Of a DNA stretch of 64,000 nt, positions 5,945-25,077 are shown one piece after another. Under the pieces are notes generated by a model. The model was given only the letters and a program-made list of their open reading frames with translations, ran no database searches and was not told the origin of the DNA. The stretch lies in the IMG/VR virus record IMGVR_UViG_3300045988_113151, one strand, 5' to 3'. The translations under genes and the position numbers were made by a program. Each line of letters begins with the position of its first letter. The stretch's first letter is position 1. This stretch comes from a virus.

Positions 5945-5957
5945 AACTTTCTAATTT

Positions 5958-7226: not shown

Positions 7227-7538
7227 AGTCGCTGCATACGGCAGACACATTTCCTCTAATCTAGTAGCATTATCAATAGCTATATACTTATAAGGATTTG
7301 TGCCTGTTTCTTTAATCTTAGCTCTAATTGCATTAGCAATTTCTCCAAGATCAGCTACACTCCTAGCTTGTACAGATAGAGCTTCAAGAAACTCAGAACC
7401 ACCCTCTAAATCTACTATTAGACAGTTATCTAATGTAGATAATAGAGTAGTCTTTCCTGATTTTGGTTTACCAAAAATAATTAAAAATCTAGGATTTTGT
7501 ACTTTTGGTTTATTTTTTTCTGTAGGTAGTACTAACAT
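7227..7538 (-). CDS. Sak4/AAA_24-like ATPase, exon 1
   Basis: Walker A FLIIFGKPKSGKTTL, followed by LIVDLEGG and IAIDNATRLEE. Confidence 0.7.
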
Positions 7539-7614
7539 ATTTTTATTATTAGTACTTTACTTAGCAATGATATTATTCTGATATTTTATGATAGTATAAG
7601 TAAAGCAAGGTTTA

Positions 7615-8169
7615 TTATGCTGCAATATTAATATTAATGTTAATAATAACATTATTAATAGTTTCTTTTTGTTTTTCACTTAAGTTCTTAGGTAAGATAT
7701 AATAATTACCATATTTAGGAACATAAGTATTACCAACTTGAACAAAGTTCTGATAGAAACGAACAGGTACACCAAGCCATTTAAAATCATAACCTTTATC
7801 AAAGTTACCATTTACCGATTTAGCATAGTCATCAAGTTTCTTCATAGCTATATCAAATTGGTCAAGAAGATTATATTTTTCATACTTATAGACACTATTA
7901 AATGGACAAGTATAGCATGGCATATCTGCGCAAGGACATGTCCAAGACGATGGACGTAATGCAGATACGTGATATTTAGGAGAGATACCAAATGCAATAT
8001 AGTCATTAGGACCTGCATATTGCATACTAGTTTGTTCATTTTTAGGACCATCTATACCATCCATAGTTAAGTATGGATATTTATTAGCAATTGTATTAAT
8101 CAAGAAATTCTTCAATTCACCTGTTTTATCGTATTTCTTTTCCGGAAGTTCAATCAAAAATTGTTTCAT
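7615..8169 (-). CDS. hypothetical protein (Cys-rich centre, ends ..NINIAA)
   Basis: ORF track; the antisense and alternative-frame ORFs inside it were rejected. Confidence 0.6.
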   Translation of the reverse strand: MKQFLIELPEKKYDKTGELKNFLINTIANKYPYLTMDGIDGPKNEQTSMQYAGPNDYIAFGISPKYHVSALRPSSWTCPCADMPCYTCPFNSVYKYEKYNLLDQFDIAMKKLDDYAKSVNGNFDKGYDFKWLGVPVRFYQNFVQVGNTYVPKYGNYYILPKNLSEKQKETINNVIINININIAA

Positions 8170-8180
8170 AATTTCAGCCT

Positions 8181-9131
8181 TTAAATTTTTTTAAAAATAA
8201 CTTTTTCTTTATTTACTTCTGCGTTTGTTTCAATCAAGTTACCGTATTTTAGTTCATTATCAAATGCTAATATGCAAGGTTCTCCAGCATCTCTTACTTT
8301 TAAGAAATGTAGATATACTTTATTTTTTACAGGTAAACGATTAACACCATAAATTGCTAACCCCAGCAATTCTGGTCTTGATAATGCCATAACAAAGTCA
8401 CTAGCTTGAAATATAGCATCAGAAGCTGCTAAGTCACTCCTCATCGGATAATGGCTACTTGGATTATTAAGTCTATCAGGTTGTTCAATATTTCGATTCA
8501 TCTGTGAAATCTGTATTATACTAGTAAAAGATAATTTCTTCATTCGTATAAACATTTTCTGTAAATCTACTATTGTACCTCTTTCACTATCTCCTTCGAC
8601 AAGAAGAGCATGGTCTAATATTATAATTAACCACTTGTCTTTTGCAATATTATCGTGAAAGTATTTTATAGTTTCTTCTATCTTTTCTACACTGCAAGGA
8701 GTATCTACATAATATATTGGATACTTCTTAATAGATTCTACTGTAGTTTTTACCTTAGTAAAATCTTCATCAGATAAATCTGCTTCAGCACTATATAATT
8801 CTGAAGTTGTTTTTCGTAACTTATTACTTAGTTTTCTACCTATTTGTCTATAACTAAGCATTTCGAAACTAAAACTGAGAATAACTATATCCTGATCAGA
8901 ATTAAGGTCAATTAAATCAGTTTCTAATGTATTAGCAAATGCTGATTTACCAGAACCAGAACCTCCTGCTATTGTTAATATCATATTTGGTTCGATTCCG
9001 CCACACGTAACTCTATTGAATTTACTCCAACGAGTCTTTAGTGGTACTATAGTATGGTTTTTCCTATTTTCTATATATTTAACAGATTCATCTGCTACTT
9101 GAGAAATAGTTTTAAATAATATTGGCTCCAT
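8181..9131 (-). CDS. DnaB-like replicative helicase (RecA-fold domain)
   Basis: Walker A ILTIAGGSGSGKSAF and Walker B LIIILDHALL, in a replication context. Confidence 0.7.
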   Translation of the reverse strand: MEPILFKTISQVADESVKYIENRKNHTIVPLKTRWSKFNRVTCGGIEPNMILTIAGGSGSGKSAFANTLETDLIDLNSDQDIVILSFSFEMLSYRQIGRKLSNKLRKTTSELYSAEADLSDEDFTKVKTTVESIKKYPIYYVDTPCSVEKIEETIKYFHDNIAKDKWLIIILDHALLVEGDSERGTIVDLQKMFIRMKKLSFTSIIQISQMNRNIEQPDRLNNPSSHYPMRSDLAASDAIFQASDFVMALSRPELLGLAIYGVNRLPVKNKVYLHFLKVRDAGEPCILAFDNELKYGNLIETNAEVNKEKVIFKKI

Positions 9132-9687
9132 AAGCTATTTCATTATTTATATCTTGTTCCATACTAAATTGCATTTCTTCTTCAGTAACTTCCCACTCTC
9201 GTTGAGTGAGCCATTTCCACATTGTTTTCATATATCCTATTTTACCAGTTATCATCTTATTATCAATTTCAAACTGAAGACATTTGATTAAATGTTCATG
9301 CATTGCTCTAGATTTTCCGACAATCCTATTGTATTCCTTTCTACATTTGTTAATATTAGAACGTAGGAATCCTTTAGTACCATCAGGTCTAGTAACATAC
9401 ACTGGAAATACTTCATAGAATTCATCAAACCAAGATTTATCTTGTTTAAGACGTTTTCTTGTATCTTCTGAAATACTATAAATTTTACTATCACCAGAAG
9501 TTATAACTGTGATAATGTTACTGTCGACTAACTCTTGAATTTCGTTCTCACTAATTCGGCTGAGAAATTGGTGAATGTCTTGATTATTACTTTGATTCTC
9601 ATTCAAAACAAGAGTTAGAAATACTAATTGATTAATTGACATTTTTCCATAAATGTCGAATAACGATGTATCTAATTCTAGTATCAT
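9112..9687 (-). CDS. hypothetical protein (possible helicase loader or replication organiser by position)
   Basis: ORF track; it overlaps the helicase gene start. Confidence 0.5.
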   Translation of the reverse strand: MILELDTSLFDIYGKMSINQLVFLTLVLNENQSNNQDIHQFLSRISENEIQELVDSNIITVITSGDSKIYSISEDTRKRLKQDKSWFDEFYEVFPVYVTRPDGTKGFLRSNINKCRKEYNRIVGKSRAMHEHLIKCLQFEIDNKMITGKIGYMKTMWKWLTQREWEVTEEEMQFSMEQDINNEIAYGANII

Positions 9688-9736
9688 AATATAGTTTTAT
9701 TTTTATGAGCTAGCTGATATCATCTGAAAATATTTG

Positions 9737-11746
9737 TTAAAATAAGCTCAACTGTTTAGGTTCAAGCTCTTCTATTATCTTAAGGCACTCTTTTAAATAG
9801 TACCGATAATTAATCTTTCTTTCTTCTATAGGTTTGTTATCAAATTTGTTTAATATAGTAATACCAGATGCCGTTAATAGATTAGTAAAATTAGTTCTTC
9901 TACCTTCAGAATCTACTAAACATTTATATAAATAAGGACCATTAGTAGATGCATAAAACCTATTTATACGTTGTATAAGGTTATTATTATATTCTACAGA
10001 GAACTTCTTATCTACTTTCTGGTAAGTGAGAAACTTATTAATATCTTTACAATTATAAATAGTATCTCTTACTGGTATATTATCAACAAAATAATCTCTA
10101 ATTGCTTCAGGAATTATCTTAGGAGACATACCTTTGCCGAGTAATACTTTAGTAATAAACATACCTTTTTCTTTTATATAATCATCTTTAATTGCATCTA
10201 AAGATGTATAAGGTTTGCCTTTTTTATTTAAAGCTTTTTCAGGATTTGTTTTAAATAGTTTCTTCATTTCCTGATATCCTTCAGATACTGCTATATAATC
10301 ATTAATAGCATACTGATACATAGCTTCAAAACGGTCTTCTTCTAATACAAGTTTAGTTTGTTGTTCCCAACTTCTACATATTTCTTGTACTTTACTATAA
10401 TAATCTTTTTTAAGTAATACAAATAGACCATCTGTGTTAGCTTGTACTATTCTACAACCTATATCTGTTAATGATTCAGCTAACATAAGTAATAACAGCT
10501 GACCATTAATTCGGATTTGCATAACTGCAAATGGACTATAACAAAAGTTATGTTCATTTTGTAAGTTACCACTTAATCCATTTAAAGCTAATTTTAAGGT
10601 TTCGTTTTTAACTTTATTACCTGTATGTTTAGCTTCAATTCGTTCGTTCTTAATCTGTGAATATACTTCTAAGAACTCTGGACCTAAATGTTTAGGATAA
10701 AACTTATATTCTATTAGCATACTAGGATATAGAGATGCAACGTCAATGTCTATTAACATTTCATCTTCCTTAGGAATAATTATTTCTGGATTATTTACAG
10801 AATGTATTCCTCCAACTCCTACTGAATATCTTAAACCTCTAAATACAAACTTATTTTCGTATCCTTTTCTTCCTGGAGAAACTATTTGTTTCTTCATATC
10901 AGATAATACATTTTTTAGTATAGGATCTCTATATTCAATAAAAGGTAATATTACTTCATTTAGTGCTATAACATCTGCTGGACTTCTTAAATCTTTAATA
11001 TCCCACCAAGTTAAACCTGTTTTTTCGAGATACTTTTGAGTTAAGATTTTCATGCCAATATTTACACCATCTTTACTTAATACTCTTACTCCATATTCAT
11101 CTTCAATTGCTATTCTTAATTCAACTTTATCTTTACATTTATTTAGTAATGCTTCAGTTGAATCTACATCATTTATATTATATTCAATCATTTCATCAAT
11201 TAAATCTGTATCTAGAGGTTTTGTCCAATCATGAGCAAACTCTAATACATTTTTGTATTGCATAGTTACTTGTATTTCTTTTAGACCTACACGTAACTTT
11301 TGAGAATATAACATAGTAAGAATATCAAATGTTTCAAAATTAACAGCATATTTCCACCTTTTCCAAGCAGATATATCGTCAGAAGTAGTTATAATTTTAC
11401 TTAGGTTATATAAACTATCACAAATTCTTAGATAGTTCATATTAATCATTTTATCGTAATAACTTATTATATAATTTATAATAGCATTATCATAATGAAG
11501 ATTATTATACCCAGCAAATATTTTATTAGTATTAAATTGTATATCTGTAGTATATATATCATTCCAACTATAAGAATTATTTCTTATAGTATAGAAGAAA
11601 TCTACAAGTTGTCTTAACTCATTTTTTCTACATGATATTTCAAATTTATAATATTGTCCAGTTTCTGTATTTTTAGCAGTACAATGAAACACATTTTGGA
11701 AGACTTCGATATCATATACATATACTGTTTTTCCTCTTATCTTCAT
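9737..11746 (-). CDS. family B DNA polymerase
   Basis: Exo motifs YVYDIEV, YNNLHYDN and YNINDVDST. Polymerase motifs DVASLYPS, KLALNGLSGN and QANTDGLFV. The start is set at MKIRGK (11746) because the longer ORF-track start overlaps the tRNA. Confidence 0.9.
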   Translation of the reverse strand: MKIRGKTVYVYDIEVFQNVFHCTAKNTETGQYYKFEISCRKNELRQLVDFFYTIRNNSYSWNDIYTTDIQFNTNKIFAGYNNLHYDNAIINYIISYYDKMINMNYLRICDSLYNLSKIITTSDDISAWKRWKYAVNFETFDILTMLYSQKLRVGLKEIQVTMQYKNVLEFAHDWTKPLDTDLIDEMIEYNINDVDSTEALLNKCKDKVELRIAIEDEYGVRVLSKDGVNIGMKILTQKYLEKTGLTWWDIKDLRSPADVIALNEVILPFIEYRDPILKNVLSDMKKQIVSPGRKGYENKFVFRGLRYSVGVGGIHSVNNPEIIIPKEDEMLIDIDVASLYPSMLIEYKFYPKHLGPEFLEVYSQIKNERIEAKHTGNKVKNETLKLALNGLSGNLQNEHNFCYSPFAVMQIRINGQLLLLMLAESLTDIGCRIVQANTDGLFVLLKKDYYSKVQEICRSWEQQTKLVLEEDRFEAMYQYAINDYIAVSEGYQEMKKLFKTNPEKALNKKGKPYTSLDAIKDDYIKEKGMFITKVLLGKGMSPKIIPEAIRDYFVDNIPVRDTIYNCKDINKFLTYQKVDKKFSVEYNNNLIQRINRFYASTNGPYLYKCLVDSEGRRTNFTNLLTASGITILNKFDNKPIEERKINYRYYLKECLKIIEELEPKQLSLF

Positions 11747-11763
11747 AAAATATAGTTTTATAG

Positions 11764-11837
11764 TGATTCTATTGCGATTCGAACGCAAAACCTACACTTT
11801 AGAAGAGTGTTGCTCTATCCAATTGAGCTATAGAATC
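11764..11837 (-). tRNA. tRNA-Arg (anticodon UCU)
   Basis: Minus strand: GATTCTA-TA-GCTC-AATTGGATA-GAGC-A-ACACT-CTTCTAA-AGTGT-AGGTT-TTGCG-TTCGAAT-CGCAA-TAGAATC-A. This is a complete cloverleaf with no encoded CCA. Confidence 0.85.
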
Positions 11838-11875
11838 AAGTGAGGCATTAAAATTTATGCCTCGTATAAATTATT

Positions 11876-12880
11876 TTAAACTGCTTCTGCTGTGTAATAG
11901 TCAGGATATAAATTCTTAAGTTCTTTAAGTTTTATTTCATAATCTTTTGATGAAGCAGTCCATCCAGTACATATTCGCAATAGTTGATCTGTAGCATTAT
12001 CATAAATATTAATGCTAATAAAATCTTCTATTTTATCTACTAACTTAGCAGATAAAGCTGTTAATGAATCATGCAAATATGCTAAGGTTTTATTAGAATA
12101 ATTCTTAACAAATACTACTGGTTTATGTTCTGAGTTAAATTTTCTGAACTCTAAACGATACTTAAATCTAGCTAGTTTCTTTTCTCGTATCGCTTTTATC
12201 AGTTTTTGTATTTTAGTTTCATGTGCAGATTCTTCTGCTGCATGCTTTAAATAGTTATTAGCTTTACCGTATTCTTCACTGTTCGAGACTAAATCTTTAC
12301 GCCATAAACTAAATTCTCGGCTATCTAATTTACTGAGTTTTAGTAATTTAGCAGAATCTCTTCTTTTCTTATTTTCAGATTGAATATTCATTTTATCAGC
12401 CTCATTTATAGCTGATTTTAAATATCGGATATCTTTTACTTTTGATATATTATTTTTAGTAGCAAAAGAAATATCTTTTAGTGTTGGCTGTCTTCTTATA
12501 GTTTTACTATAAGTTTTATTTTCAGTGTTAAAGTTAATAGTATAAGTAATTTTCTGATTAGCTAACGCAGCTTTTGCAGCTTTAGCTACAGTATTCCATT
12601 CAAAAACGATATCTGTCTTTGCTCCTTTACTTGGATTAGGTTTTGTAGTAACTATTTTAATTTTCTTATCAATAGTTTCTTCTTCTATTTCGTATAGTTC
12701 TTCTAATTTCTTATTCTTCTCCATCAAGGCATTTATCTTGCGATTACGATTTTCTGAATATCGTTTCATCTTTGCCTCATATCTTTCTAGAGGAGTTTTT
12801 ACTGCTTTTTCCTGAATTACGAAATATTTTTCACCTGTTTCTTTATTTCTTTTATTTAATTTGATAGTATATTTTTCCAT
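11876..12880 (-). CDS. hypothetical protein (Lys-rich, 334 aa)
   Basis: ORF track. Confidence 0.6.
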   Translation of the reverse strand: MEKYTIKLNKRNKETGEKYFVIQEKAVKTPLERYEAKMKRYSENRNRKINALMEKNKKLEELYEIEEETIDKKIKIVTTKPNPSKGAKTDIVFEWNTVAKAAKAALANQKITYTINFNTENKTYSKTIRRQPTLKDISFATKNNISKVKDIRYLKSAINEADKMNIQSENKKRRDSAKLLKLSKLDSREFSLWRKDLVSNSEEYGKANNYLKHAAEESAHETKIQKLIKAIREKKLARFKYRLEFRKFNSEHKPVVFVKNYSNKTLAYLHDSLTALSAKLVDKIEDFISINIYDNATDQLLRICTGWTASSKDYEIKLKELKNLYPDYYTAEAV

Positions 12881-12900
12881 ATTGATTACGAATTTTAATT

Positions 12901-12941
12901 AATAAAAAAGTAGTTAGTAAGTAATATACCTACTAACTACT
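12901..12941 (-). terminator. intrinsic terminator-like hairpin
   Basis: A 15-bp stem with one mismatch (agtagttagtaagta / tacctactaactact) and a 3-nt loop. On the minus strand it is followed by CTTTTTTATT. Confidence 0.5.
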
Positions 12942-12976
12942 AACTACTAAAAATAAACACACAACAATAAAAACAA

Positions 12977-13483
12977 CTAAGCTGCCAAGCTTAAAGGAGC
13001 GATAGTATCATCAAACTCCGTTTCGTTATTAAACTTTTCAAGTTTATTGTTCAATTCAATTATTTGTAAATCTAGTTCTTTAATACGTGCAAATTTCCAG
13101 TTAGAAGTAAAAATTTCTGTACGATTTAAATTTTTCTTACCTTTCTTTGCTTTAAGAACAGGATTTAATGTTCGAAAACTATTTGAACTAATTTTATTAC
13201 GAATTTCTTTTAGCTCACATAGACGAAAAATGTCTAACTGATTACAATCTTTCGGTAAATCACTTAGTTTCTTAAGTCCCATATTAATAGCAAGTAACTT
13301 AAGTTTAATCAATGCACGCTTTTCAGCAAGCATTTTGATTTCTTCAAATAAAACTTTTAGGTCATATTTACGCATATAGTTTTTATTTACTACATTTTCT
13401 GCATAAATAATGTCCCAATATTGTTTTAACTGATATGATATATTATTACGTTCTTCTATAAAATTCTTTGATTTCTTTGTCAT
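12977..13483 (-). CDS. hypothetical protein (ends ..PLSLAA, TAG stop)
   Basis: ORF track. Confidence 0.6.
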   Translation of the reverse strand: MTKKSKNFIEERNNISYQLKQYWDIIYAENVVNKNYMRKYDLKVLFEEIKMLAEKRALIKLKLLAINMGLKKLSDLPKDCNQLDIFRLCELKEIRNKISSNSFRTLNPVLKAKKGKKNLNRTEIFTSNWKFARIKELDLQIIELNNKLEKFNNETEFDDTIAPLSLAA

Positions 13484-13770
13484 ATATTTTGAGTTTTAAT
13501 TGATTAGTACTAAAGTTATATAACATATTAGAAATCGTTTACCTGTGCCGTGGTATCCATATTGAAATGGCAGCATAGTTCTTATTCTCCTAGCTTTCCA
13601 GTTATTCCCTATCAGTTACGGTAGGATTATTACCACGATAATAATAACTAGAGACCCATCATCTCTAGTTATTAGAAATTATTTTTGTTTGACTTTCGTC
13701 GAATTTTCAATCTAAGGTTTAAAGTTCCATCAACATATACTTAAATTAAAAATTGGTTTATAAAGAAATA

Positions 13771-14316
13771 TTATGGTTTCCGTACTAGTATTTCCACATC
13801 TCCTATTACTTCACCACTATTTAATATAACAGATGCTTGTTTTTGTGAAAAAGCAATTGTTTCAAGACCTTCATTTTTTCTAGTAGGTCTAGAACTAGAC
13901 ATATTTATATATTGGCTAGTATATTCTCCATCCATATTACCGCCATATCTTAGAACATCAAAAAGCATATCAATTACATATTCATAGTTATTATTCCGAA
14001 CAGCTTTATCCATAAAATCCTTAGTCATCCCATCAAACACAGGATTAGAATAATTACCATTTGGAACTGATATAACATCCATAATTGTTAATGCTAAATC
14101 ACGAAAACTTATATCTTTATAGTCACTAAACCATAAGCATAACCATTTAAATCGCCGTCTTTTAGTATAGAAACGAACTGATCCATCATCATGAATTTCT
14201 ATACTACCAACAACCTTATCACCCATCGTGATATGTTTATAGACATACTTATTATTTAGTATAAAACGTAATAAGTCTTTATGAACTTCACTAATTTTTA
14301 CTTCTGTGTTGTTCAT
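13771..14316 (-). CDS. hypothetical protein
   Basis: ORF track. Confidence 0.6.
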   Translation of the reverse strand: MNNTEVKISEVHKDLLRFILNNKYVYKHITMGDKVVGSIEIHDDGSVRFYTKRRRFKWLCLWFSDYKDISFRDLALTIMDVISVPNGNYSNPVFDGMTKDFMDKAVRNNNYEYVIDMLFDVLRYGGNMDGEYTSQYINMSSSRPTRKNEGLETIAFSQKQASVILNSGEVIGDVEILVRKP

Positions 14317-14327
14317 TTTTATTTATA

Positions 14328-14888
14328 TTAAAGTCCATATTGACGATAATATTCGTCACAGCTCTGCTGCTGACCTTTAATAAGTTCTTTAAGCATAGTC
14401 ATCTGTGCTAAGAAATCATTAGCAAGTGCCTCTGCCTTCTCTGCTTCCTGTTTGTTACGGAAATTAGCTTCATCTGTCAATCGTTTCCGATCGGCAAAGA
14501 ATAGCGGAGTCTGATTATTCTTAGCTCGAATACATGCTTCTTCAATTGCCGAATTATCTGTTGCTTCTGCAAAGAATTTCGGTTCTTGAACAATCTTAGC
14601 CCGTAATTCTGGCTTTTCGTTGAACTCAATGAAAATCTCATCATTAATAACAAGAAGTCGTTGAGATGACACAAGAACAGTGTTAACCATATATTTTAAT
14701 AGTGGTTCTACTAACCGTGGATGTTGATTAGTAAGTTCCTTCTCACGATGAGAAAGATCAACATTGTCAACTTGCAAATAACAGATAGTCTTACCTAAAA
14801 GGCTACCCATATTACTTACTACCTTACGAGCATCCCGTAAGCGTGCTTCAATTTTCTGTTCGTTTCCTTGATTATAATTATTTTCCAT
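14328..14888 (-). CDS. hypothetical protein
   Basis: ORF track. Confidence 0.6.
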   Translation of the reverse strand: MENNYNQGNEQKIEARLRDARKVVSNMGSLLGKTICYLQVDNVDLSHREKELTNQHPRLVEPLLKYMVNTVLVSSQRLLVINDEIFIEFNEKPELRAKIVQEPKFFAEATDNSAIEEACIRAKNNQTPLFFADRKRLTDEANFRNKQEAEKAEALANDFLAQMTMLKELIKGQQQSCDEYYRQYGL

Positions 14889-16938
14889 TTTGATAAAATT
14901 TTTATTTAATTGCAGAACCCATCGTTCCTAAGTAACACACTAGCAGTTCTCTTAATTCAGTATAATTAATAGGCGTCTTATATCCTATCGCTTTTAAAAA
15001 GCTTAGAAATAATTATAGTAAATCTCTAATTCAATAGATACTATACATATTACCATTATAAAAAATCTGATACAGTATGATAAAACTCGACATTTAATTC
15101 TTATTTACCTTCACTGATACTATTCTGATAACTTCTGCAATTAAGGTTGTTTGAAATTATTTGTTAATTCTCTGATATTTATTATCGTAGTTATATTCTA
15201 GAGCTCTTGGTAGAGGTGCATACAACAGGGACTCTAATGGTAAGAGATATATACCCCGTAAGATAATTGGTTTAGCTGATTATTTAAAGAGCCTAACAGT
15301 AAATACCTAAAAACGTGCTCTACTCATTTTTATCCATTCGTCAGTTGAGTGCTGGGTTTCTGATACTGTATATTATATCTACCGAGACAGGGTAGACCTT
15401 TTGTCGACATCAGCGCTGCCGGTTTTGTTATGAGCTGTTTATGTTTCAAAACACCCACTCTATAGCCTTGTATTACTCACAGGCTGCGTGTACTTACGAC
15501 TTTGTTCTTATCCTGCACATAATTCTAGGATTTCCACCTATCATCCCTTAATGGAGGGAATCAGTGTCACTTTACATATATTGTTGCGCAATATACTTTA
15601 AGTGGTTCTAGTGTTAGCAATTATATTGTACAGTCGAGGGTGGCTCGATATAGCTTTTAACTATACACTATACTACCATTGGACTTCCTCATTGCTTTAG
15701 TTGAACATGTTAATAATCTCACAAAAAGAAACCCTTACATATTAGACTTACTATCTACATTTAGTGTCAGTAAAGTGTAGCTGCTAAAATGGGGAATGCA
15801 CAGATTATACTCCGATCTGCTTCGTCCTCTAGGTTAAAATATTTCACGACTTTCCTTACTGGTTGTAAGGCTCAATGTTTTTAAATATACAACGTTATCT
15901 CAATGTTGCCAACTCGAATTTGATCAGGGAGTTATTTCTCCACTAGCTTTAGATTTTCTGTTTATACTAATTACTTCTAATCTATGATATAGAGTTTTCT
16001 GGCTCTTCATCCCATATCTACTTTATTTCCTAGTGCAAAGCACTTTAGGTTTATACTCATCTAAGTAGCAACTGAGTTTAATTATAATATTACTTAGTCC
16101 ACACAATCCCATTAAACTGAGAATTATTTCTTGCAAAATACTTTAATTATACTTCCGATTAGTTATTAAATATAACATTACATATAGGCTTTATACCTAA
16201 TCCAGTTAATCTATATTATATCCATCTTACTTACAACGTAAGTTCTATATAATGATCATAGCTACTCAGCCAAAAGGCATGTAATTTACTACTCACTTAT
16301 CATATAATTAAATAGTGCTATAATATTTATAATTCTACCTTCATACATACTGCTTTAAACATTCTTTCTTTAATGCACACTTCCAATTTAAGCTTTCCAA
16401 AGGCACGTGTCAGTATGGAACACTATAGTAGTATTTTTAGTAACTTTATAGCTACAAGGAAGATTTGGAGTCTACCTAGAATGCTTAACGATTCTATAAA
16501 TACATATCTACTAAAGTTTGGAGCTTTAGTACTTTCTTTATCCTCGCACTTTGCGAGTTTGCGACTCGTGTAAGGTAACATTCCCTTTTGATATTCAGTT
16601 TGATAACTGGTATTCGAATGTATTAACGATACCTGGCATTGTTTAACTTCATAAATCTGCTGATTTAATCGTTGCGTCTTTAGTCACCAATCGGTTCTCA
16701 CTGAGGATGTGCCACGCTCTTCCTCTTTCTCGTCATTTCTTCAGTCTTAAACAGTAAATTCGACATGATCAAGTTATTATACCTTCGTTCACTCAATAAT
16801 AGTGGTAGCTATTATTCCAGCCTCTAGTATTATGTACTGTTAATGCTTACTTTACTCAATTTCAGCATTCCTCTTCCTATTTGAATAGGAGCGTCTAGGC
16901 GAAGCAATTACGTTGCTAACGAATGCAGTTTATAGCTC
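14889..16938. other. about 2.05-kb ORF-free island, candidate large structured RNA(s) or regulatory region
   Basis: Only one 66-aa ORF in six frames. Hand translation of 16621-16938 in two minus-strand frames shows frequent TAA, TGA and TAG. It is visibly more GC-rich than the flanking genes and has many local hairpins (ctaccGAGACAGggtag, tccctTAATGGaggga, tcgagGGTGGctcga). Confidence 0.5.
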
Positions 16939-17361
16939 TTATTTCGCGCTTTGCTGCTCTAGTTGCGCGTCAGTTTTATCTTCACTGATAATATTTACCT
17001 TACATGTGTTAAGGTCTAGAAATCCGACATAGTTAGTTCCTTTTACTAAGTCTATTGTTTTATGTTTGATATCATACGAAGATACAAACGAAATAGGGTC
17101 AAATACAGTAGCATCGAATTCATCTAATTTCTTAGATAGTTCTTCTACTCTATATTCTAACTTCTTAATAAGTAAACTAGATTGATTAAGTATCTCATTA
17201 ATTTGTTTGTTAAACTCATGAGATACTTTACCATCTTCTATGACAATTCTAGTAGCAGAAGAAGCTTTAGACAACTCTATTCTGCTGTTCTTTAAATTGC
17301 GAATAACTTCTGAAGTACGAAGCATGTGTTGAACGACTAGTCTATTTCTCGTCATCTTCAT
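16939..17361 (-). CDS. hypothetical protein
   Basis: ORF track. Confidence 0.55.
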   Translation of the reverse strand: MKMTRNRLVVQHMLRTSEVIRNLKNSRIELSKASSATRIVIEDGKVSHEFNKQINEILNQSSLLIKKLEYRVEELSKKLDEFDATVFDPISFVSSYDIKHKTIDLVKGTNYVGFLDLNTCKVNIISEDKTDAQLEQQSAK

Positions 17362-17752
17362 TATTATTCCAAATTAAAGGTTCTACATTATTTCGTATAA
17401 TTACCTTGTTCTCCAATACGAGAGGAGCAACACGATATGGCGCAGGTCGATTATCCACTACGACAGGCTTCTCAACTATACGCTCAATATACTTTTTAAT
17501 TGTTCGTATACTATCTTTCTTAACAATGTTTACATTAGCAGTAGCTGTACCTTCTACTGTAACTTCTTCATTCTTAAGGTCAATATTAATAGTAGATGGT
17601 AAGATTGTTTCAACAGGTCTTGGAACATCTACATAACGAGGGACAGGAGCCAGTTCTGCCTTTGGTGCAGTTTGTTTAAGTGCATCATAGCTAACAAAGC
17701 TTCCGAAAGTTAAGATACCTAGTATCATTAACATATTAATACGGTTATTCAT
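17342..17752 (-). CDS. hypothetical N-terminally membrane-anchored protein (TAG stop)
   Basis: Hydrophobic N-terminus MLMILGILTFGSFV. Confidence 0.55.
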   Translation of the reverse strand: MNNRINMLMILGILTFGSFVSYDALKQTAPKAELAPVPRYVDVPRPVETILPSTINIDLKNEEVTVEGTATANVNIVKKDSIRTIKKYIERIVEKPVVVDNRPAPYRVAPLVLENKVIIRNNVEPLIWNNNEDDEK

Positions 17753-17758
17753 ATTTGA

Positions 17759-19306
17759 TTATGCTTTAGAGTATGCAGATTCATCAATGTAATTTGCTAA
17801 TCGTTTTACAGGATCTTTATACAATCCAGCTATTTCAGTAAGTTTATTTTGAACTAGCTGAGTAGAATCTCCTAGGTTATACATATTATTAATTACAGAG
17901 AAAATCTTATCTCCTTTAATTTTATTTACAAAGTCTTTATTGTACTTACCTTCAATCATTCCTTCAATAGTTACTGGAATATTCTCTTCTTTATTAGCAA
18001 TCTTTTTGATTATTTCATCAGTAGATGATTTGCTTAGCATATCATTAAAGATTGTAACAGAGGCGTCCGCTCCAGTCTTTTCTGTAGCAAATTCTTCAGC
18101 ACTATTAGCAAGCATTACCTTAATAAAATCAGCAATCTGTTGTTCATTATATCCAAGACCTTCAAAGTCTTTATACAACAAACTGTGTGCAATATATGGA
18201 GAATTATTTCCAATCAGAGCACCAGATGCTTTACTCATTAAACCTTTCAAACAAAGTGTTTTTGTTTGATTAAACTTACTGTACATTAGAGCTAAAGTAG
18301 TAGTAGGATTATCAGATTTAACTTCAAATGCTTTATTTGCCCATTCAATAGCATCTTTAACATTCAAAGCCATCCGTTGTGTAGCGTTGATTTTAGTACC
18401 TTCTGCAATATTACTACGACTTAGAATTCCTCTAAGAGCGTTAAGCTTTTCTTCTTCAGTCAGCTTAGGATCTGCTTCAGGTATTTCAAACTTGGTTGCT
18501 TTAGCATCTGCTTTAGCAGCCTTTTTTACATCTTCAGGTACTGTTTCAAATTCAAGATTTAATTGTTTTCCGTCTTTAGTTGGTAAGGCTTTAACATCTA
18601 CTCCATACATATTTAAGAATTGATTCTTAATCTGTGGATATACATCTTTAGTTATAGTAATACCCTTAAGAATAGACTTACCTTCTTGTTCTAGTTGCAT
18701 TGCATATAACAAACACAACTGACACAATCCTCCACTATATACTTCCTTCATTGCGGCAACTTGTTCGCGAGGCAAGTCTTCGTCAGTATCAATATAAGTT
18801 TTACGGATTAGTGATAACAATTCTACTTGATGGTTTTCATCAATACGTTCCTTATTTGCAATCATAGCTACTCCACGTGTAATATCAATAGGTAGTTGTT
18901 TTTCGGTCTTTTCCTTGTTGATATCTACAGTCTCTGGAATAATAGTTTCAACTTTTTCTTCCTTTTTCTTTTCTTCCTTCTTCTGAGATTTCTCAGATTC
19001 AGGTTTTTTGTCTTCTTTTTTACCTCCTTCTTTTTCTGGTTTTACACTAGCCTTAGTTTCCTCAGGCTTCTTCTCCGTTTTCTTTTCTTCTTTAGAAGTA
19101 TTTTTAACTTCTTCTTTTGGTTTTTCTACAGGCTTCTTTTCCTGTTCTTTAGGTTTATTACTTGGTTGAACTTCTTCTTTCTTTTCAACCTTTTCAGTCT
19201 CTTTTTCTTTTGTAGGTTCTTCTACTTTTACAGTATTAACCTTATTTTCTTTAATCTTTGCTGCTAAGTTAGATTTGTTTTCTTTTCCTTTATTACGTTT
19301 TGACAT
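17759..19306 (-). CDS. hypothetical protein with Lys/Glu-rich N-terminal third
   Basis: ORF track; the plus-strand ORFs inside it are antisense shadows. Confidence 0.6.
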   Translation of the reverse strand: MSKRNKGKENKSNLAAKIKENKVNTVKVEEPTKEKETEKVEKKEEVQPSNKPKEQEKKPVEKPKEEVKNTSKEEKKTEKKPEETKASVKPEKEGGKKEDKKPESEKSQKKEEKKKEEKVETIIPETVDINKEKTEKQLPIDITRGVAMIANKERIDENHQVELLSLIRKTYIDTDEDLPREQVAAMKEVYSGGLCQLCLLYAMQLEQEGKSILKGITITKDVYPQIKNQFLNMYGVDVKALPTKDGKQLNLEFETVPEDVKKAAKADAKATKFEIPEADPKLTEEEKLNALRGILSRSNIAEGTKINATQRMALNVKDAIEWANKAFEVKSDNPTTTLALMYSKFNQTKTLCLKGLMSKASGALIGNNSPYIAHSLLYKDFEGLGYNEQQIADFIKVMLANSAEEFATEKTGADASVTIFNDMLSKSSTDEIIKKIANKEENIPVTIEGMIEGKYNKDFVNKIKGDKIFSVINNMYNLGDSTQLVQNKLTEIAGLYKDPVKRLANYIDESAYSKA

Positions 19307-19396
19307 TTTGATATGTTTACGACAGTCCTTTCTGCCTTTTAAGTTAAAAAATAAATTAATAATTTAATGGTTTAAAAACTTGATAGTAGAAGCATT

Positions 19397-19780
19397 TCAA
19401 CTATCGTTAACAATCTCTGGTAGGTTTAACACTTTATTAGGTGTGCCTATTGATTTAGCTACAATGTCACTCTCCATTTCCTTACCCATTACCTTGTATG
19501 TAGCTTTATTTTCTATTTCCTGGTAATTATTACTAGGAATAGTAAATAAAACATAAGATAATGTGGGATTAGGAGTTGTAGCTTTATCTACTACAGCTTT
19601 CTCAGGCTTACTATTATCATCACTATTAGTGATAAAATAGTATCCTGCACCTAATAACAAACCTAATGCTAATGTAGTTAGCATTCTTGTACAAGCATCA
19701 ATTCTTTGTTCAGTTTTCATTACTCTAGATATAATGAAAATGATGATGATTGCAAGCAACAAATAAATTATCGTTGACAT
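19397..19780 (-). CDS. membrane protein (two predicted TM helices); possible sigma-factor partner by position
   Basis: Hydrophobic segments IIYLLLAIIIIFIISRV and LTTLALGLLLGAGYYFI. It lies directly downstream of the sigma gene. Confidence 0.5.
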   Translation of the reverse strand: MSTIIYLLLAIIIIFIISRVMKTEQRIDACTRMLTTLALGLLLGAGYYFITNSDDNSKPEKAVVDKATTPNPTLSYVLFTIPSNNYQEIENKATYKVMGKEMESDIVAKSIGTPNKVLNLPEIVNDS

Positions 19781-19793
19781 GATTTGTTAGGTA

Positions 19794-20351
19794 TTAGTAA
19801 ATATTTGCTATTTTTTGTTTTAATCGTTGTCTTGCTTTATTTAAATCTGATTTAACTTTAGATTCTGGTAAAGCAAATTTTTCAGATATCTCATTATAAG
19901 ATAGACCTTCTATTCGAGCGTTTATTAAATCTCTATATTTCTTTCTAAGTGTTAGAATAGCTTGTTCAACTATTTTTACTTTTTCTTGTAAAACTAATTG
20001 TTCTTCAGGACTTTTTTCGATATTTTCTAATTGAATAGTATTATCTTCATCGTCCATATAGTTATTTAATTGCTCTTTCTTATTTCTTCTTATATAATCT
20101 ATTGAACTGTTAACTGCAATAGTTTTTAACCACATTTCAAATGAAATATGTTGTACATAAGAATCTAATTTTTGATAAGCTTTAGTAAATACTACAGATG
20201 TTAAATCATCTGCTATATCTGTATTCTTTACTATATTATAAATAGTAAACCAAATATTTGATTTATATAATTTATAAAGCTTAGTAAAGGCACTTTCTGA
20301 ACCTTGTTTAGCCTGTTCTACTAAAGTAATTACTTCTTGTGTCATAGGCAT
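19794..20351 (-). CDS. ECF-type sigma-70 family RNA polymerase sigma factor
   Basis: Region 2-like DIADDLTSVVFTKAYQKLDSY...FEMWLKTIAVNSSIDYIRR and a region 4 HTH LSYNEISEKFALPESKVKSDLNKARQRLK. Confidence 0.8.
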   Translation of the reverse strand: MPMTQEVITLVEQAKQGSESAFTKLYKLYKSNIWFTIYNIVKNTDIADDLTSVVFTKAYQKLDSYVQHISFEMWLKTIAVNSSIDYIRRNKKEQLNNYMDDEDNTIQLENIEKSPEEQLVLQEKVKIVEQAILTLRKKYRDLINARIEGLSYNEISEKFALPESKVKSDLNKARQRLKQKIANIY

Positions 20352-20397
20352 AAAATATTAGTGAGCTATAGTCTACCCAACGACTATAGCCCTAAGT

Positions 20398-20808
20398 CTA
20401 AAATGGTAAAGTCGATATATAGTATCTACTACATTCAGCAAATCTAAAGTTAAACAAAAGAAGTATATGATTTCCCCAGTATATTTTAGCAATCTCTGGT
20501 ATTTGTAATTTATCTATCATATTTATTACAATTCTAAGTTTTACTCTAGATGTACTTTCTGTAATAGTAAATCCTTTATCATTTATTAGACAATCTACAA
20601 TAGGTTGAAATATAGTTCTATTTGCATATCTAGCTAATTCTACTACTTCTTTACTTCTATGAATAGTAAAATCTAAAGGATAGATATGCGGATCATCTTC
20701 TATGTTATAATACTTATCACTAAGATATTTTTCACATATAGGATTATAATTGAACATATATTCATAAGGTAGATTTTTGTTAATAGTATCTAAAACTTCG
20801 ATAAGCAT
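20398..20808 (-). CDS. hypothetical protein (TAG stop)
   Basis: ORF track. Confidence 0.55.
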   Translation of the reverse strand: MLIEVLDTINKNLPYEYMFNYNPICEKYLSDKYYNIEDDPHIYPLDFTIHRSKEVVELARYANRTIFQPIVDCLINDKGFTITESTSRVKLRIVINMIDKLQIPEIAKIYWGNHILLLFNFRFAECSRYYISTLPF

Positions 20809-20812
20809 ACTA

Positions 20813-21268
20813 CTAAATATAATTAAGAAATTTCTTAATTTTATTTTCTAAGATATTTGATGCTTGCCCAACATCAATCTTATACTCTTTACAAATTGTA
20901 ATAATGAATTTGTTGTCACATTCTGCTGTTCCATACATCTCCATATACGCTTTGTACTTTTCTGTGAGTTCTTTGATTTCCTCATCTGTTATTACTTCAC
21001 ACTTTTTAAAAGTACGAGTACCAATTCCTAATAAACTATTAACAGCACTAGTTACGGTTAATTTATCAAATGTATATTGGTCGGGATTTTGAACAATATG
21101 TTGTACTTCAATAGAATTTTCACCTAATTCTTTTACTCTTCCAGTATTAAAGAATTCATTCATTGAGATACCTTTTAAAATTTTGATAAATGGAGCCTCA
21201 CCTACTGCTTTAATAATTATGTTCTGGCTAGGTCCCTGAGCCATCCATACTCCTTCTTTTAATGCCAT
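20813..21268 (-). CDS. hypothetical protein (TAG stop)
   Basis: ORF track. Confidence 0.55.
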   Translation of the reverse strand: MALKEGVWMAQGPSQNIIIKAVGEAPFIKILKGISMNEFFNTGRVKELGENSIEVQHIVQNPDQYTFDKLTVTSAVNSLLGIGTRTFKKCEVITDEEIKELTEKYKAYMEMYGTAECDNKFIITICKEYKIDVGQASNILENKIKKFLNYI

Positions 21269-21270
21269 AG

Positions 21271-21462
21271 TTACTTACTTTTTGATTTGTAAAACTTTTG
21301 TGAAATTTGATATGCCATTGTTAAATCAATGCCATATTTTGTTATTAACTTTTGTCTAAAGTCATCTATATCTTCAGATTGTTCTCCTAGTTTAATGACT
21401 TCATCTTTTAAACCTGGCTTATTAAATTTAATCCAAGTTACAGTTTCAAATAATTTTTCCAT
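21271..21462 (-). CDS. hypothetical protein
   Basis: ORF track. Confidence 0.45.
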   Translation of the reverse strand: MEKLFETVTWIKFNKPGLKDEVIKLGEQSEDIDDFRQKLITKYGIDLTMAYQISQKFYKSKSK

Positions 21463-21465
21463 TAA

Positions 21466-21756
21466 TTACTGACAGTTATATTCATAGTTTGATACTTGTT
21501 CTTGAATATTACTCCAAAAACTTAGTCCTTCTTCTAAACTAAGTGATACACATATTGCTTGGATAGAATATGTTGTATACAAACGATTTATCATATTAAT
21601 AGCTTCCTTATAATGATATTTATCTTTTAAGTTACTAGGTATGTATTTTTGATATACTTGTTTAGTAAAGCTACAATAACATTTATTACGTTTCATAATA
21701 GTACGCCATGATTCTGGCATTCTATCTTTACAAGCTTGTCTAATACTTTTTTCCAT
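21466..21756 (-). CDS. hypothetical protein
   Basis: ORF track. Confidence 0.5.
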   Translation of the reverse strand: MEKSIRQACKDRMPESWRTIMKRNKCYCSFTKQVYQKYIPSNLKDKYHYKEAINMINRLYTTYSIQAICVSLSLEEGLSFWSNIQEQVSNYEYNCQ

Positions 21757-21770
21757 AATATTATAATTAT

Positions 21771-22052
21771 TTAAAGTTTTTGTACATTAGTACTATTTTT
21801 TTGCTCCTTTCTCTGTTTCATTAGTTTTTTTATTTTACCTAATATATTATCCCAATATTCAAATCCTTCTTTAGTACTACTCCAAGAAAATCCACCACTC
21901 CATGATCCTGCTGTGGGATTTTTTTCAAATACTTGTAAATCAGGTTTATTTCCATGTCTTGCTTGATTCTTAAGCATTTTCTGTTTTATTTCTGGTGGTA
22001 AAGTCTGAATACTATAAAATTCTGTTTTCTTTCTATGTCTTCCTCTATTCAT
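21771..22052 (-). CDS. hypothetical protein
   Basis: The start is moved to MNRGRHRKK (22052) because the longer ORF-track start overlaps the tRNA-like element. Confidence 0.5.
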   Translation of the reverse strand: MNRGRHRKKTEFYSIQTLPPEIKQKMLKNQARHGNKPDLQVFEKNPTAGSWSGGFSWSSTKEGFEYWDNILGKIKKLMKQRKEQKNSTNVQKL

Positions 22053-22067
22053 AATATTAAAGTTTAG

Positions 22068-22141
22068 TTCACGGAGCAGGATTCGAACCTGCACTCATTT
22101 CCCATATCCGTTCTGTGTCTAACCAATTGCACCATCCGTGA
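22068..22141 (-). ncRNA. tRNA-like element without a canonical anticodon stem
   Basis: Minus strand: TCACGGA...GCAGG-TTCGAAT-CCTGC-TCCGTGA-A. It has a 7-bp acceptor stem, a perfect T arm and a D-loop-like AATTGGTTA. The 22 nt where the anticodon arm should be (AGAACGGATATGGGAAATGAGT) cannot form a stem. Confidence 0.45.
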
Positions 22142-22283
22142 CCTGCTTTTTACGACATTAGCTTAGCCGTTGACTTATCGTATTACGCTGCAATACGAGT
22201 ATAGTCTGTTACAAAAGATTTGTCATTTCTGACGTCTATTGACCTATTCATTTTCATCCTCGCTGTCAAATCCATAATACCCC
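22142..22283 (-). ncRNA. ssrA: tmRNA-like coding piece (5' acceptor strand, tag reading frame)
   Basis: Minus strand: GGGGTATTATGGATTTGACAGCGAGG... (compare E. coli GGGGCUGAUUCUGGAUUCGACGGG). AATAGAC-GTC precedes the frame GTC AGA AAT GAC AAA TCT TTT GTA ACA GAC TAT ACT CGT ATT GCA GCG TAA (compare E. coli AAUAGUC-GCA AAC GAC ... GCA GCU UAA). The 3' limit is uncertain. Confidence 0.6.
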
Positions 22284-22382
22284 ATTAGTAGGATTTTCAC
22301 CTACTTTGAAGCTTTGCGACATTTAGTCTAGGAGTGGTTTATACCCTTGCCAAGAGGAATCGAACCTCTATGCTTCTGACCG

Positions 22383-22440
22383 TGGAGTATGAGGGAGTCG
22401 AACCCTCGTCCAAACGATTCATCCAATGACCTAACAGTCA
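22383..22440 (-). ncRNA. ssrA: tmRNA-like acceptor piece (P2 3' strand, T arm, 3' acceptor strand)
   Basis: Minus strand: ...ATCGTTTGGAC-GAGGG-TTCGACT-CCCTC-ATACTCC-A. ATACTCC pairs with GGGGTAT at 22283-22277, including a G3.U70 pair. GGAC precedes the T stem as in E. coli tmRNA (..UUUCGGAC-GCGGG). UCGUU can pair with AGCGA next to the GAC of the coding piece. The 5' limit is uncertain. Confidence 0.55.
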
Positions 22441-22997
22441 ATATAGTAGTATATAGTTAAATCAATAACTATATACTTAAATATGAATAAACTGTAGGTA
22501 AGTATAATAAAAATAATAATCGGAAATATACTTTAAATACAGAGGCAGATAACTTACTATATGTTTAAAGATTTACTTCTATATCTAAGAGTAGCATCAA
22601 CTATTACTTTATTATAGGCTCTAGGCTCGCTTACTCTACAGTTTTAAATAGGCTTTGATTGCATGTATAGTATAGCAAGTGCTCATGTAAAACAGACTCG
22701 ATTGAACTATAGGCATAAAGCTCTCTATACATATACAATTTGATTTTGTGTACTGTTTATCGTCATAAGACTATTCATAGTACAAACTTCGCCAGTTTTA
22801 TACCCTCGTGGCTTATAGCTCTTGAGTTTAGAACGATCTTTAGGCTCATGATCAGTGGCACGTTTTTTACCCAGCAAAATGGGTCAAGCCTCTATTGCTT
22901 GTTGTCAATTCAACTGTGTACAACATCCTGCATCAAAAGACGACTTATCATGTTCTATGTACAGATTTGTCATAAAGACTTCTTCTTGGGTTGTCGA

Positions 22998-23423
22998 TTA
23001 ATAACGCCAAGCGTCATCACCGTAAATATCACGTTTTCCTTTTTCAATAGCTTTATCTCGGGTTTCTTCAGCCTTTGATATAGCACTGTCATAGGTTTCG
23101 TAATTACCTGTGGTTTCGAGGTCTTTTCTTGCTTCACTCACTTCTTTCAGATAGATTTTCTGAGCTGCTTCTTTTATACGAGCCATACGAAGACCCTTCA
23201 AAGCATCATCTTCTTTGCTTTCTGAATTACGCAAGCGCTGTTCAATTCGTTGAGTTTCTTCTTTCAGTTTACGTTCTGCAATATTATTCTTTGCAGCTTC
23301 AATTGCTTCTTTAGAACCAACTTTCTGTTTTTCAGATTGAGCAGTAATAGCAGCTTCAACATCGAATTCAGCACACAAAACGTTTGCGCCTAAGATAGCG
23401 CTTGTAAAATTTACATTTTTCAT
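22998..23423 (-). CDS. hypothetical protein (coiled-coil-like, higher GC)
   Basis: ORF track. Confidence 0.6.
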   Translation of the reverse strand: MKNVNFTSAILGANVLCAEFDVEAAITAQSEKQKVGSKEAIEAAKNNIAERKLKEETQRIEQRLRNSESKEDDALKGLRMARIKEAAQKIYLKEVSEARKDLETTGNYETYDSAISKAEETRDKAIEKGKRDIYGDDAWRY

Positions 23424-24000
23424 AATTGTTTGAAATTTTAATTGTTAATAATTGATTTATTTAAGAAATGAATATTAATAGTATATCTCACTAAGTTCAT
23501 TACTGAGTTCTTTATTTTCCTCTGTAAGATATTCAATTTCTACTTGAGATTCTAATATAATTTCTATTAGTTCTTCTTTTGTTTCTGTTTCTAATTCTTC
23601 TTGTGTCCACATAGACTTTTAAATTTAAGAGAGTTATCTGTCTATTCGTACGTCTTATTCAACAGAAGCCCTTTTCCTTCTCCTGACCTATTACTAGGTT
23701 GACCGTTGTATAGTCCGTAGTACTCTATCTGTTAAGATTCCTTTAGGGGTTTGGCTTTATAACTCTCTAGGCTTAACTTCACCATAACTTAATAATTAAG
23801 TTAAAAACAAATTATCTGGCATGATAATATTAGTTGTTATAATAAATATTACTTTATTACTACACGCATGGAGATTTTACCTTCCACGTTTATAAGGCTC
23901 TAATTTCTTATGCCTTATTTTCTTTTTAGATTGATACTCGTAAGCTTTTTCAGATTGCTTAGATCCTGGAAAATGAGATTCCTTGTAAGTCTTTCCCATA

Positions 24001-24381
24001 TTACATATCCATTATATAATACATTTTAGCTGCTAACTCTGGTATATAACTAGCTTTGATATTAGTTAGATAACTAAGATCAGATGTACTAGGTGTCATT
24101 AATATACGCAAAGCTTCTTTGTTATTAGTACTAATAATAGATGCTTTCAAATAGTCTTTAAACTTACTAGAACTTGGATGATATCCGGATTTAGCTTCAA
24201 ATTGTTTAACAAGTTTAACAAATTCAGAATCTTTAGCATTTAATCTTTCTTGAGATGCATCTTCCTCTGACAATAATACAGGTTTAGTATTAAAACCAAT
24301 TTGTTCAGAGAATTTAACCATAGCATTTTTAATACTTGATTCACTTACCTCATTAGGTATGCATATTACGACTACTTTCAT
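24001..24381 (-). CDS. hypothetical protein
   Basis: ORF track. Confidence 0.55.
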   Translation of the reverse strand: MKVVVICIPNEVSESSIKNAMVKFSEQIGFNTKPVLLSEEDASQERLNAKDSEFVKLVKQFEAKSGYHPSSSKFKDYLKASIISTNNKEALRILMTPSTSDLSYLTNIKASYIPELAAKMYYIMDM

Positions 24382-24391
24382 AATTTTGATA

Positions 24392-25013: not shown

Positions 25014-25077
25014 TCTTCTGAAGGAGCTATATTCCTGTTTCTCAACTGTAATATAGCAAAGACAATTTTAAAATAAA

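Follow-up and report, generated by a model that had tools for sequence, protein, structure and literature searches.

The region described here is the gap at positions 14889-16938 of a 64,000-nucleotide (nt) stretch of viral DNA (IMG/VR record IMGVR_UViG_3300045988_113151; this whole stretch is called the window), in which we propose that a large structured non-coding RNA is encoded. The nearest public records to the window are the Suoliviridae crAss-like phages cr6_1, cr114_1, cr125_1, cr115_1, cr4_1, cr60_1, and cr109_1. Up to about 29 kb, the minus strand carries the window genes. On one side, the gap is flanked by a gene block containing a sigma factor (sigma gene 19794-20351), and on the other by a block leading to a 683-amino-acid (aa) open reading frame (ORF) and a tRNA-Arg, which is the counterpart of the DNA polymerase region of the relatives. 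A sequence-only reading of this DNA had described the gap as free of ORFs of at least 60 aa save one, and the ORF list agrees: the longest are a 66-aa ORF on the plus strand (16373-16573) and a 52-aa ORF on the minus strand. Reassigning any single stop codon does not rescue a gene, as had also been claimed, the longest run in any frame being 119 open codons. No tRNA or iterons were found in the gap, again as described, and neither were tandem repeats or meaningful internal repeats. The G+C content is higher than on either side (33.2% against 27.8% for 1-14888 and 30.3% for 16939-29000), although the rise is modest and not marked as had been thought. The minus strand is indeed purine-rich (56%), but the gap does not stand out in this, since flanking minus-strand genes are skewed in the same way. 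The motifs said to recur in the 27.2-28.1 kb island do so at chance level, with a best BLAST expect value (E) no better than 0.03 and an estimated 15 or so chance 12-mer matches between the gap and the rest of the window.

The gap was then compared with that of a relative with 90% identity (L011). Mismatches were distributed over the three phases as 52/57/68, i.e. without codon periodicity, and a strong third-position excess was seen in every flanking ORF (for example 9/2/52 and 53/15/165). Identity to this relative was 91.2% in the gap versus 68-89% in the flanking ORFs. With cr6_1, the gap gave a colinear alignment at 72-79% nucleotide identity over about 1 kb, the adjacent protein being only 20-30% identical. 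Neither an open frame nor an excess of third-position substitutions was found in the gap, whether read in the standard or in a recoded manner. Judged by these substitution patterns, the gap is not translated and is under stronger purifying selection than the neighbouring genes.

Related loci were gathered in five ways, through the flanking proteins, a conserved DNA pattern, GenBank records, species genomes, and a wider assembly collection. A gene-free gap of 1.87-2.3 kb was present at the same position in all of the approximately 150 related Suoliviridae genomes. It measured 2,010-2,290 nt in the general set, 2,056-2,192 nt in Loutivirinae relatives, and 1,866-1,947 nt in the subfamily of the window itself. 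A set of 139 gap sequences fell into 17 clusters when grouped at 95% identity and into 10 when grouped at 80%. The gap was found in eight classified GenBank species belonging to the Bearivirinae, Uncouvirinae, and Loutivirinae, where it is unannotated save for two doubtful small or antisense ORFs. By this sequence comparison, the locus is conserved at one position throughout the sampled Suoliviridae, the delta group of crAss-like phages. The RNA locus was also seen on contigs L233-L236, filed as Thauera sp., an uncultured Clostridium metagenome-assembled genome (MAG), a Bacilli MAG (a contig of 100,654 nt), and an uncultured bacterium; these look like mis-binned or contaminant crAss-like phage contigs and not like host genes.

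Evidence for folding was strongest for a 167-nt domain near the 5' end of the minus strand. Its structure, 28 pairs, was drawn manually on 21 sequences aligned with MAFFT (A2). In this alignment, 96% of the cells were paired and 16 pairs were compensatory, which none of 500 shuffles equalled, and controls in which the structure was slid along the alignment (slid controls) had 34-53% of cells paired. From this structure, we built a covariance model, R1. In the 64-kb window, R1 gave a single match, at the domain itself (16672-16838 on the minus strand, 130 bits, E 2.8e-22). It found one full-length site per lineage, also in sequences that had played no part in building it (eight loci of Loutivirinae and four contigs from species genomes), and no match on unrelated contigs sharing only the search pattern. 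Such non-crAss contigs, which match the pattern GAGAGCGTG..TGAGAACCG, have nothing else in common and were discarded as chance. In the alignment of 27 sequences obtained with R1 (A3), 94.9% of the cells were paired and 22 of the 28 pairs were compensatory, versus 32-50% and 3-7 pairs in slid controls; these figures are biased toward the structure, since the alignment was fitted to it. Among the pairs of the 5' domain, G·U occurred in 29 cells and A·C in none. This asymmetry indicates that the folded strand is the minus strand of the window, and the minus-strand sense of the RNA is hardly in doubt.

A full-length alignment of seven sequences (A6), made possible by five intermediate relatives of the window lineage that were obtained via homologues of the downstream protein, was analysed with RNAalifold. 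The consensus contained 319 pairs in 57 helices, running from 16917 to 14983. In this consensus, 94.2% of the cells were paired and 135 pairs were compensatory, compared with 62±5 after shuffling and 18-27 for the slid controls, the figures for A6 being generous because the structure was derived and scored on the same seven sequences. The slid controls preserve the relatedness of the sequences and yet stay far below the real score. Moreover, about 20 hairpins were independently predicted in single-sequence folds of at least three deep lineages, and many of the hairpin loops keep their sequence (AGAGCGUG, GAGCAG, UAUCGUUAA, CUCCAAA, CGCAAC, and GGAAAU). The conserved loops suggest tertiary or protein contacts. 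The alignment of syntenic relatives recommended in the sequence-only reading thus revealed compensatory changes along nearly the whole gap, and its first candidate, one or more large structured RNAs, gains support from conservation and covariation in many lineages. These comparisons indicate that base pairing has been preserved by selection in more than 50 helices, and we are almost certain that the gap carries a selected RNA structure. Whether or not it is one molecule, the locus has the features of the class of large structured RNAs: it is non-coding, longer than 500 nt, and contains many helices with compensatory changes as well as conserved unpaired nucleotides.

The features of the locus, and those of other RNAs in the window, are collected in Table 1. 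On the minus strand, the structured element covers roughly 2.0 kb, beginning at about 16987 and ending at about 14985. The 5' boundary at 16938 taken from the ORF-free gap had to be moved, as covarying conserved hairpins begin some 50 nt upstream, at about 16987, within the 3' end of ORF 16939-17361. On the 3' side, hairpin 15008-14983 is the last widely shared element. The remaining 100 nt or so are probably the leader of the downstream gene 14328-14888 and not part of the RNA; at this position, other lineages carry GUAUUAAC and AAGGAG motifs (ribosome-binding motif).

Table 1. Features of the structured locus and of other RNAs in the window (positions on the window; listed 5' to 3' on the minus strand within the locus).
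Feature	Position	Strand	Details	Basis
Upstream hairpins	16945..16987	-	CAGU-gaagauaaa-ACUG (16987-16971); CGCGC...GCGCG (16969-16945); overlap 3' end of ORF 16939-17361	
Conserved motif AAGAGCUAUAA	16930..16940	-	55-100 nt upstream of 5' domain	
Three leader hairpins	16842..16917	-	16917-16903; 16899-16870 enclosing 16891-16875; 16869-16842	RNAalifold consensus, A6
5' domain	16672..16838	-	167-nt multi-helix junction; hairpin loop AGAGCGUG..AA, then invariant UGAGAACC and AAGACGC	
Hairpin series	16440..16673	-	Covarying; conserved loops GAGCAG, UAUCGUUAA, CUCCAAA	Alignments and A6
Helix GAAUG/CAUUC	16584-16580 with 16482-16478	-	Spans ~100 nt	
Central domain, ~470 nt	15964..16434	-	Closed by AUACUA (16434-16429) with UAGUAU (15969-15964)	
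Central helix	16334-16320 with 16093-16080	-	14 bp, 7 compensatory pairs	
Central helix	16285-16279 with 16183-16177	-	7 bp, 4 compensatory pairs, no mispair	
Central-domain parts		-	Module A 16298-16254; module B 16214-16169; hairpin 16077-16055; near-invariant GUGCUUUGCAC	
Candidate H-type pseudoknot	15991..16014	-	UGG (16014-16012)/CCA (16002-16000); AGAG (16006-16003)/CUCU (15994-15991)	
Variable stretch	15700..15941	-	Conserved hairpins 15941-15928, 15869-15855, 15820-15800	
3' core domain	15513..15690	-	GAGG/CCUC helix 15690-15687 with 15639-15636	
3' core enclosing helices	15633-15627 with 15519-15513; 15623-15619 with 15524-15520	-		
3' core hairpins	15596-15576; 15540-15526	-	CGCAAC loop (first); GGUGGAAAUCC (second)	
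Hairpin series	15190..15498	-	15456-15433, 15421-15405, 15396-15378, 15319-15295, 15257-15227, 15226-15190 enclosing 15215-15204	
3'-terminal part	14983..15054	-	Hairpin AAGCUU...AAGC, 15008-14999 with 14993-14983; no U-tract behind	
Leader of downstream gene (probable)	14889..14982	-	Small covarying hairpin ~14927-14915, then A-rich stretch preceding ATG	Alignment of 11 lineages
Permuted tmRNA-like gene	22183-22442	-	ARAGORN 22092-22472 with tag peptide	
Weak tRNA-model match	22068-22141	-	Overlaps ARAGORN tmRNA call	
RAGATH-9	23627-23780	-		
Hatchet ribozymes	24887-25025; 26928-27040	-		
RAGATH-14	27414-27650	-		

At the 5' end, the stems of the upstream hairpins covary and their loops are kept in all lineages, Loutivirinae included. 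The first stem occurs, for example, as CUGC/GCAG, GCC/GGC, CUAC/GUAG, and AGGG/CCCU, and the second as ACCGC/GCGGU and UCGCA/UGCGA. In A6, the leader helices 1-3 have 3, 2, and 4 compensatory pairs, and helix 4 is invariant. The motif AAGAGCUAUAA is present in the window group, the cr6_1 clade, the Uncouvirinae, L142, and L236, and is absent in Loutivirinae; it may be a start or processing signal. As a general promoter it was rejected, being missing from Loutivirinae and not over-represented in the window. The same 11-mer, AAGAGCTATAA, was observed on the minus strand upstream of both the RNA locus (16930-16940) and the tmRNA-like gene (22810-22820), which may reflect a common start or processing signal of non-coding RNA genes, or coincidence.

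In the central part, A6 helices 12-19 of the first hairpin series have 3, 3, 1, 0, 2, 7, 3, and 4 compensatory pairs. The helix closing the central domain is perfectly complementary in seven sequence versions from independent lineages with no violation (AUACUA/UAGUAU, AUGCUA/UAGCAU, AUACCA/UGGUAU, AUGUC/GACAU, AUAUUG/CAAUAU, AUAUC/GAUAU, and UUGCUAA/UUAGCAA), two of which turned up only after the helix had been proposed. The candidate pseudoknot was scored on an alignment of 12 lineage representatives (A4), with 98.8% of cells paired and five of seven pairs compensatory. None of 500 shuffles did as well and slid controls had 26-52% of cells paired; stem 1 varies only in the window lineage. A helix pairing 16007-16001 with 15293-15287 was dropped, as it is invariant in the subfamily, is not kept in other lineages, and conflicts with the pseudoknot. 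Another long-range candidate, 16837-16833 with 15802-15798, was abandoned because of a competing local hairpin and mismatches in one clade. Large indels between lineages fall in the variable stretch, where compensatory pairs number 3 in A6 helix 37 and 4 in A6 helix 38.

Toward the 3' end, all eight pairs of the CGCAAC hairpin (8 bp) are compensatory across lineages, and the hairpin appears in the minimum free energy (MFE) fold of six of six deep groups. Each enclosing helix of the 3' core has 2 compensatory pairs; the outer one is free of mispairs and the inner one has two. The motifs of this core are kept in Loutivirinae. A6 helices 46-53, in the second hairpin series, are 95-100% paired with 1-5 compensatory pairs each, and islands of identity to other lineages lie here. 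The 3'-terminal hairpin is present in most lineages, has 7 compensatory pairs in A6, and covaries as GCUUU/AAAGC, GCUUA/UAAGC, and GUUU/AAAC.

The locus was compared with known RNAs by Rfam 15 scans, run at the gathering score and also permissively (E<=10 for the window, E<=5 for the gaps of L001, L177, L178, and L145). No Rfam family matched the gap in these five lineages even at E<=5-10. This includes the families put forward for checking (GOLLD, ROOL, HEARO, raiA, and group I and II introns), and the covariance models of GOLLD and ROOL in particular had no match in the gap of the window or in the four others. The same scans recovered nearby tRNAs, transfer-messenger RNA (tmRNA)-like genes, hatchet ribozymes, RAGATH-9 and RAGATH-14, and group I introns. 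Group I and II introns are large structured RNAs common in delta-group crAss-like phages (PMC7886860). A group I intron was rejected for the gap, as Intron_gpI matched in none of the gaps and positive controls did in L178 (75 bits) and L145 (55 bits). These two matches lie near the locus, at 1850-2139 of L178 (cr4_1) and 12392-12564 of L145 (an IMG/VR relative). A group II intron was rejected as well: domain V and D1-D4 models found nothing, in line with the earlier failure to recognise a domain V, and the flanks are separate complete genes with their own stop and start in all lineages. Models of self-cleaving ribozymes and RAGATH RNAs did not match the gap, and found their positive controls elsewhere in the window (two hatchet ribozymes, RAGATH-9, and RAGATH-14). 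These last RNAs resemble the locus in being non-coding RNAs of the same minus-strand early region of Suoliviridae, but each of them measures only about 110-240 nt, and Rfam recognises them.

GOLLD and ROOL, of roughly 600-800 nt, are often borne by phages or prophages. The gap resembles them as a large and ornate multi-helix non-coding RNA with conserved unpaired nucleotides, and their function is not known. It differs in its length of about 2 kb (two to three times longer), its low G+C content, and its occurrence in Crassvirales of Bacteroidota hosts. GOLLD and ROOL are described by cryo-electron microscopy as folded RNAs forming homo-oligomeric assemblies (PMC12286853). OLE, likewise a large, highly conserved structured RNA, works as a ribonucleoprotein; unlike the gap, in which the OLE model has no match, it is a cellular RNA found in Bacillota and has partner proteins dedicated to it. 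According to the annotation of relatives, Suoliviridae phages encode a ribosomal-protein-like protein near the gap, and bS21 has been linked to OLE (PMC12054373). A connection between the gap and OLE through such a protein would be speculative.

The closest precedent is functional and not homologous: it would be the long non-coding RNAs of phage phi14:2. There, the long stretches between genes, g004-g005 and g005-g006, show transcription above that of most genes, beginning with the earliest time point and persistently (Drobysheva et al., bioRxiv 10.1101/2020.03.07.982082), and the function of these RNAs is reported as not known (bioRxiv 10.1101/2020.03.07.982082). In phi14:2, the early transcripts, which the virion RNA polymerase makes, do not share a promoter motif. 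Missing signals at our locus are therefore no argument against transcription. Like the gap, the gene-free stretch of phi14:2 (2905-4601 of NC_021806) lies in the early/replication module, upstream of the DNA polymerase gene by a few kb and co-oriented with it, so both are long gene-free stretches in an early Crassvirales module, in the orientation of the genes. On the other hand, phi14:2 belongs to the Steigviridae, has a marine host, and no conserved structure has been described there. R1, which covers only the 5' domain, was run on 1200-6000 of phi14:2 (L237) with filters off, and its best hit had E 0.09 and lay inside a coding gene. Positions 4031-4502 of NC_021806 matched the tmRNA model (46 bits, E 3.6e-16, gathering score 47), and one of the phi14:2 long non-coding RNAs may be a phage tmRNA. 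In the window, the tmRNA-like gene lies 5 kb from the gap, unlike in phi14:2, where part of the gap is itself tmRNA-like. In the literature combining crAss or Crassvirales with non-coding RNA, we found no description of the region, and Yutin 2021 is silent on it.

At a probability of roughly 0.6, we favour the reading that the gap encodes a very large, structured non-coding RNA of several domains, either as one gene or as a block of tightly linked genes. This RNA would be transcribed along with the early/middle minus-strand genes, because the minus strand has no terminator and early transcription by the virion RNA polymerase proceeds without a recognisable promoter motif in crAss-like phages. 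It would then work in trans as a folded scaffold or a component of a ribonucleoprotein, like GOLLD, ROOL, or OLE, and neither by base pairing with targets nor by coding. Such a role, to which analogy and the pattern of conserved loops point, is put forward tentatively. The chances are even that a single functional RNA of at least 1 kb is made. It is more doubtful that the whole 2 kb is one RNA, with a defined three-dimensional body, a multimeric assembly, or a ribozyme activity required early in infection. Several observations weigh against the proposal of one large RNA, in addition to the dependence of the A3 and A6 figures on their own structures. The two halves of the gap fold no better than dinucleotide shuffles (MFE z -0.03 for 15900-16840 and +0.46 for 14960-15899, minus strand), so that the hairpin density seen in the sequence-only reading is not beyond chance, even though the four hairpins it quoted are found where it placed them. 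In an unguided global helix scan, long-range matches only equalled the parallel-orientation control, and a single long-range helix is individually convincing (16434-16429 with 15969-15964). In the cr6_1 clade and in L145, modules A and B have changed places. A piece of about 225 nt is 95.6% identical between L178 (cr4_1, Loutivirinae; 9467-9691) and L031 (Uncouvirinae-like; 4319-4542), which are otherwise only about 50% identical in the locus, indicating recent exchange of this module. The neighbouring proteins offer no functional clue, as none except the sigma factor belongs to a PHROG or Pfam family, and the AlphaFold model of the downstream 186-aa protein (mean predicted local distance difference test score, pLDDT, 74) has no fold match in the PDB. 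The swapped and exchanged modules are at least as compatible with independent units as with one globular RNA. As a separate observation, a coding stretch at 17760-18700 of the minus strand, inside ORF 17759-19306, had an MFE z of -3.3, and none of 20 shuffles equalled it.

In a rival reading, the gap is an array: several structured RNAs, each independent and about 100-500 nt long, would be cut from one long transcript, as in other non-coding islands of this genome, which are rich in ribozymes and RAGATH RNAs. This would account for the modularity, for the predominance of local helices among those supported, and for whole hairpin modules being present or absent between lineages; at 22-28 kb, the same genome also has several small RNAs apart from one another, as well as ribozymes that cleave themselves. 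It fits less well with a total length held at 1.87-2.3 kb across lineages only about 50% identical, with the occurrence of all domains together in every genome, and with the helix spanning about 470 nt and the nested helices spanning 108-254 nt, which tie large parts together. Nor was any known ribozyme, internal terminator, or promoter-like signal found in the gap: scans for sigma-70-type promoters and intrinsic terminators stayed at background level, and no terminator-like site was found on its sense (minus) strand. We consider such an array rather unlikely and moderately prefer a single large RNA, or a small number of large ones, while keeping the reading with several RNAs. A cis-acting element, i.e. 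a giant leader for replication genes, a primer RNA or replication origin, or replication hairpins of single-stranded DNA, is improbable. Its location between the sigma-factor and DNA polymerase blocks on the same strand would suit this, as would a 3' end running straight into the leader of the next gene with no terminator, but 2 kb and more than 50 conserved helices go far beyond known leaders or origins, and the asymmetry of G·U over A·C fits an RNA of one strand. Of the signs of a replication origin, the gap has no iterons or tandem repeats and no AT-rich unwinding block, its G+C content being raised and not lowered, and the cumulative GC skew turns near 29 kb and not at the gap. Decayed or recoded protein genes, listed as a candidate in the sequence-only reading, or functionless spacer DNA, are practically excluded. 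The annotations that could speak for them are a 145-aa antisense hypothetical protein inside the locus of cr109_1 (gp34; 3461-3898 in L245) and a 53-aa ORF at its edge in cr114_1 (gp096; 5612-5773 in L002), both probably spurious calls of the kind that gene callers put in this locus. Against them stand the missing open frame under any single reassignment and the lack of codon periodicity in the mismatches, together with a gap that is more conserved than its flanking genes, is present in all lineages, and shows compensatory changes. Intact protein genes at this place in relatives, which had been named as the mark of decay in this genome, were seen in none of the loci, all of which share the gene-free gap.

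If one molecule, the favoured large RNA would be among the largest structured RNAs known outside the ribosome, and the largest non-ribosomal one known from bacteria or their viruses. A new large class would join GOLLD, ROOL, OLE, HEARO, and raiA, whose functions are mostly not known. Its carriers, the Suoliviridae, are the largest and most numerous group of human-gut crAss-like phages. Hundreds of natural sequence variants are on hand for structure modelling, and with phi14:2 this phage group already has an analogous, highly expressed, and unexplained non-coding region.

Elsewhere in the window, a dense run of known non-coding RNAs occupies 22092-28000 of the minus strand (Table 1), and the same families were found in cr115_1 and cr4_1. 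At the start of the plus-strand late region, a tRNA with the anticodon CTA (UAG suppressor) lies at 36636-36708 on the plus strand, and beyond 36 kb the standard-code ORFs of this strand become short. This suggests that TAG is reassigned in the late genes, which has been reported for crAss-like phages of the delta group.

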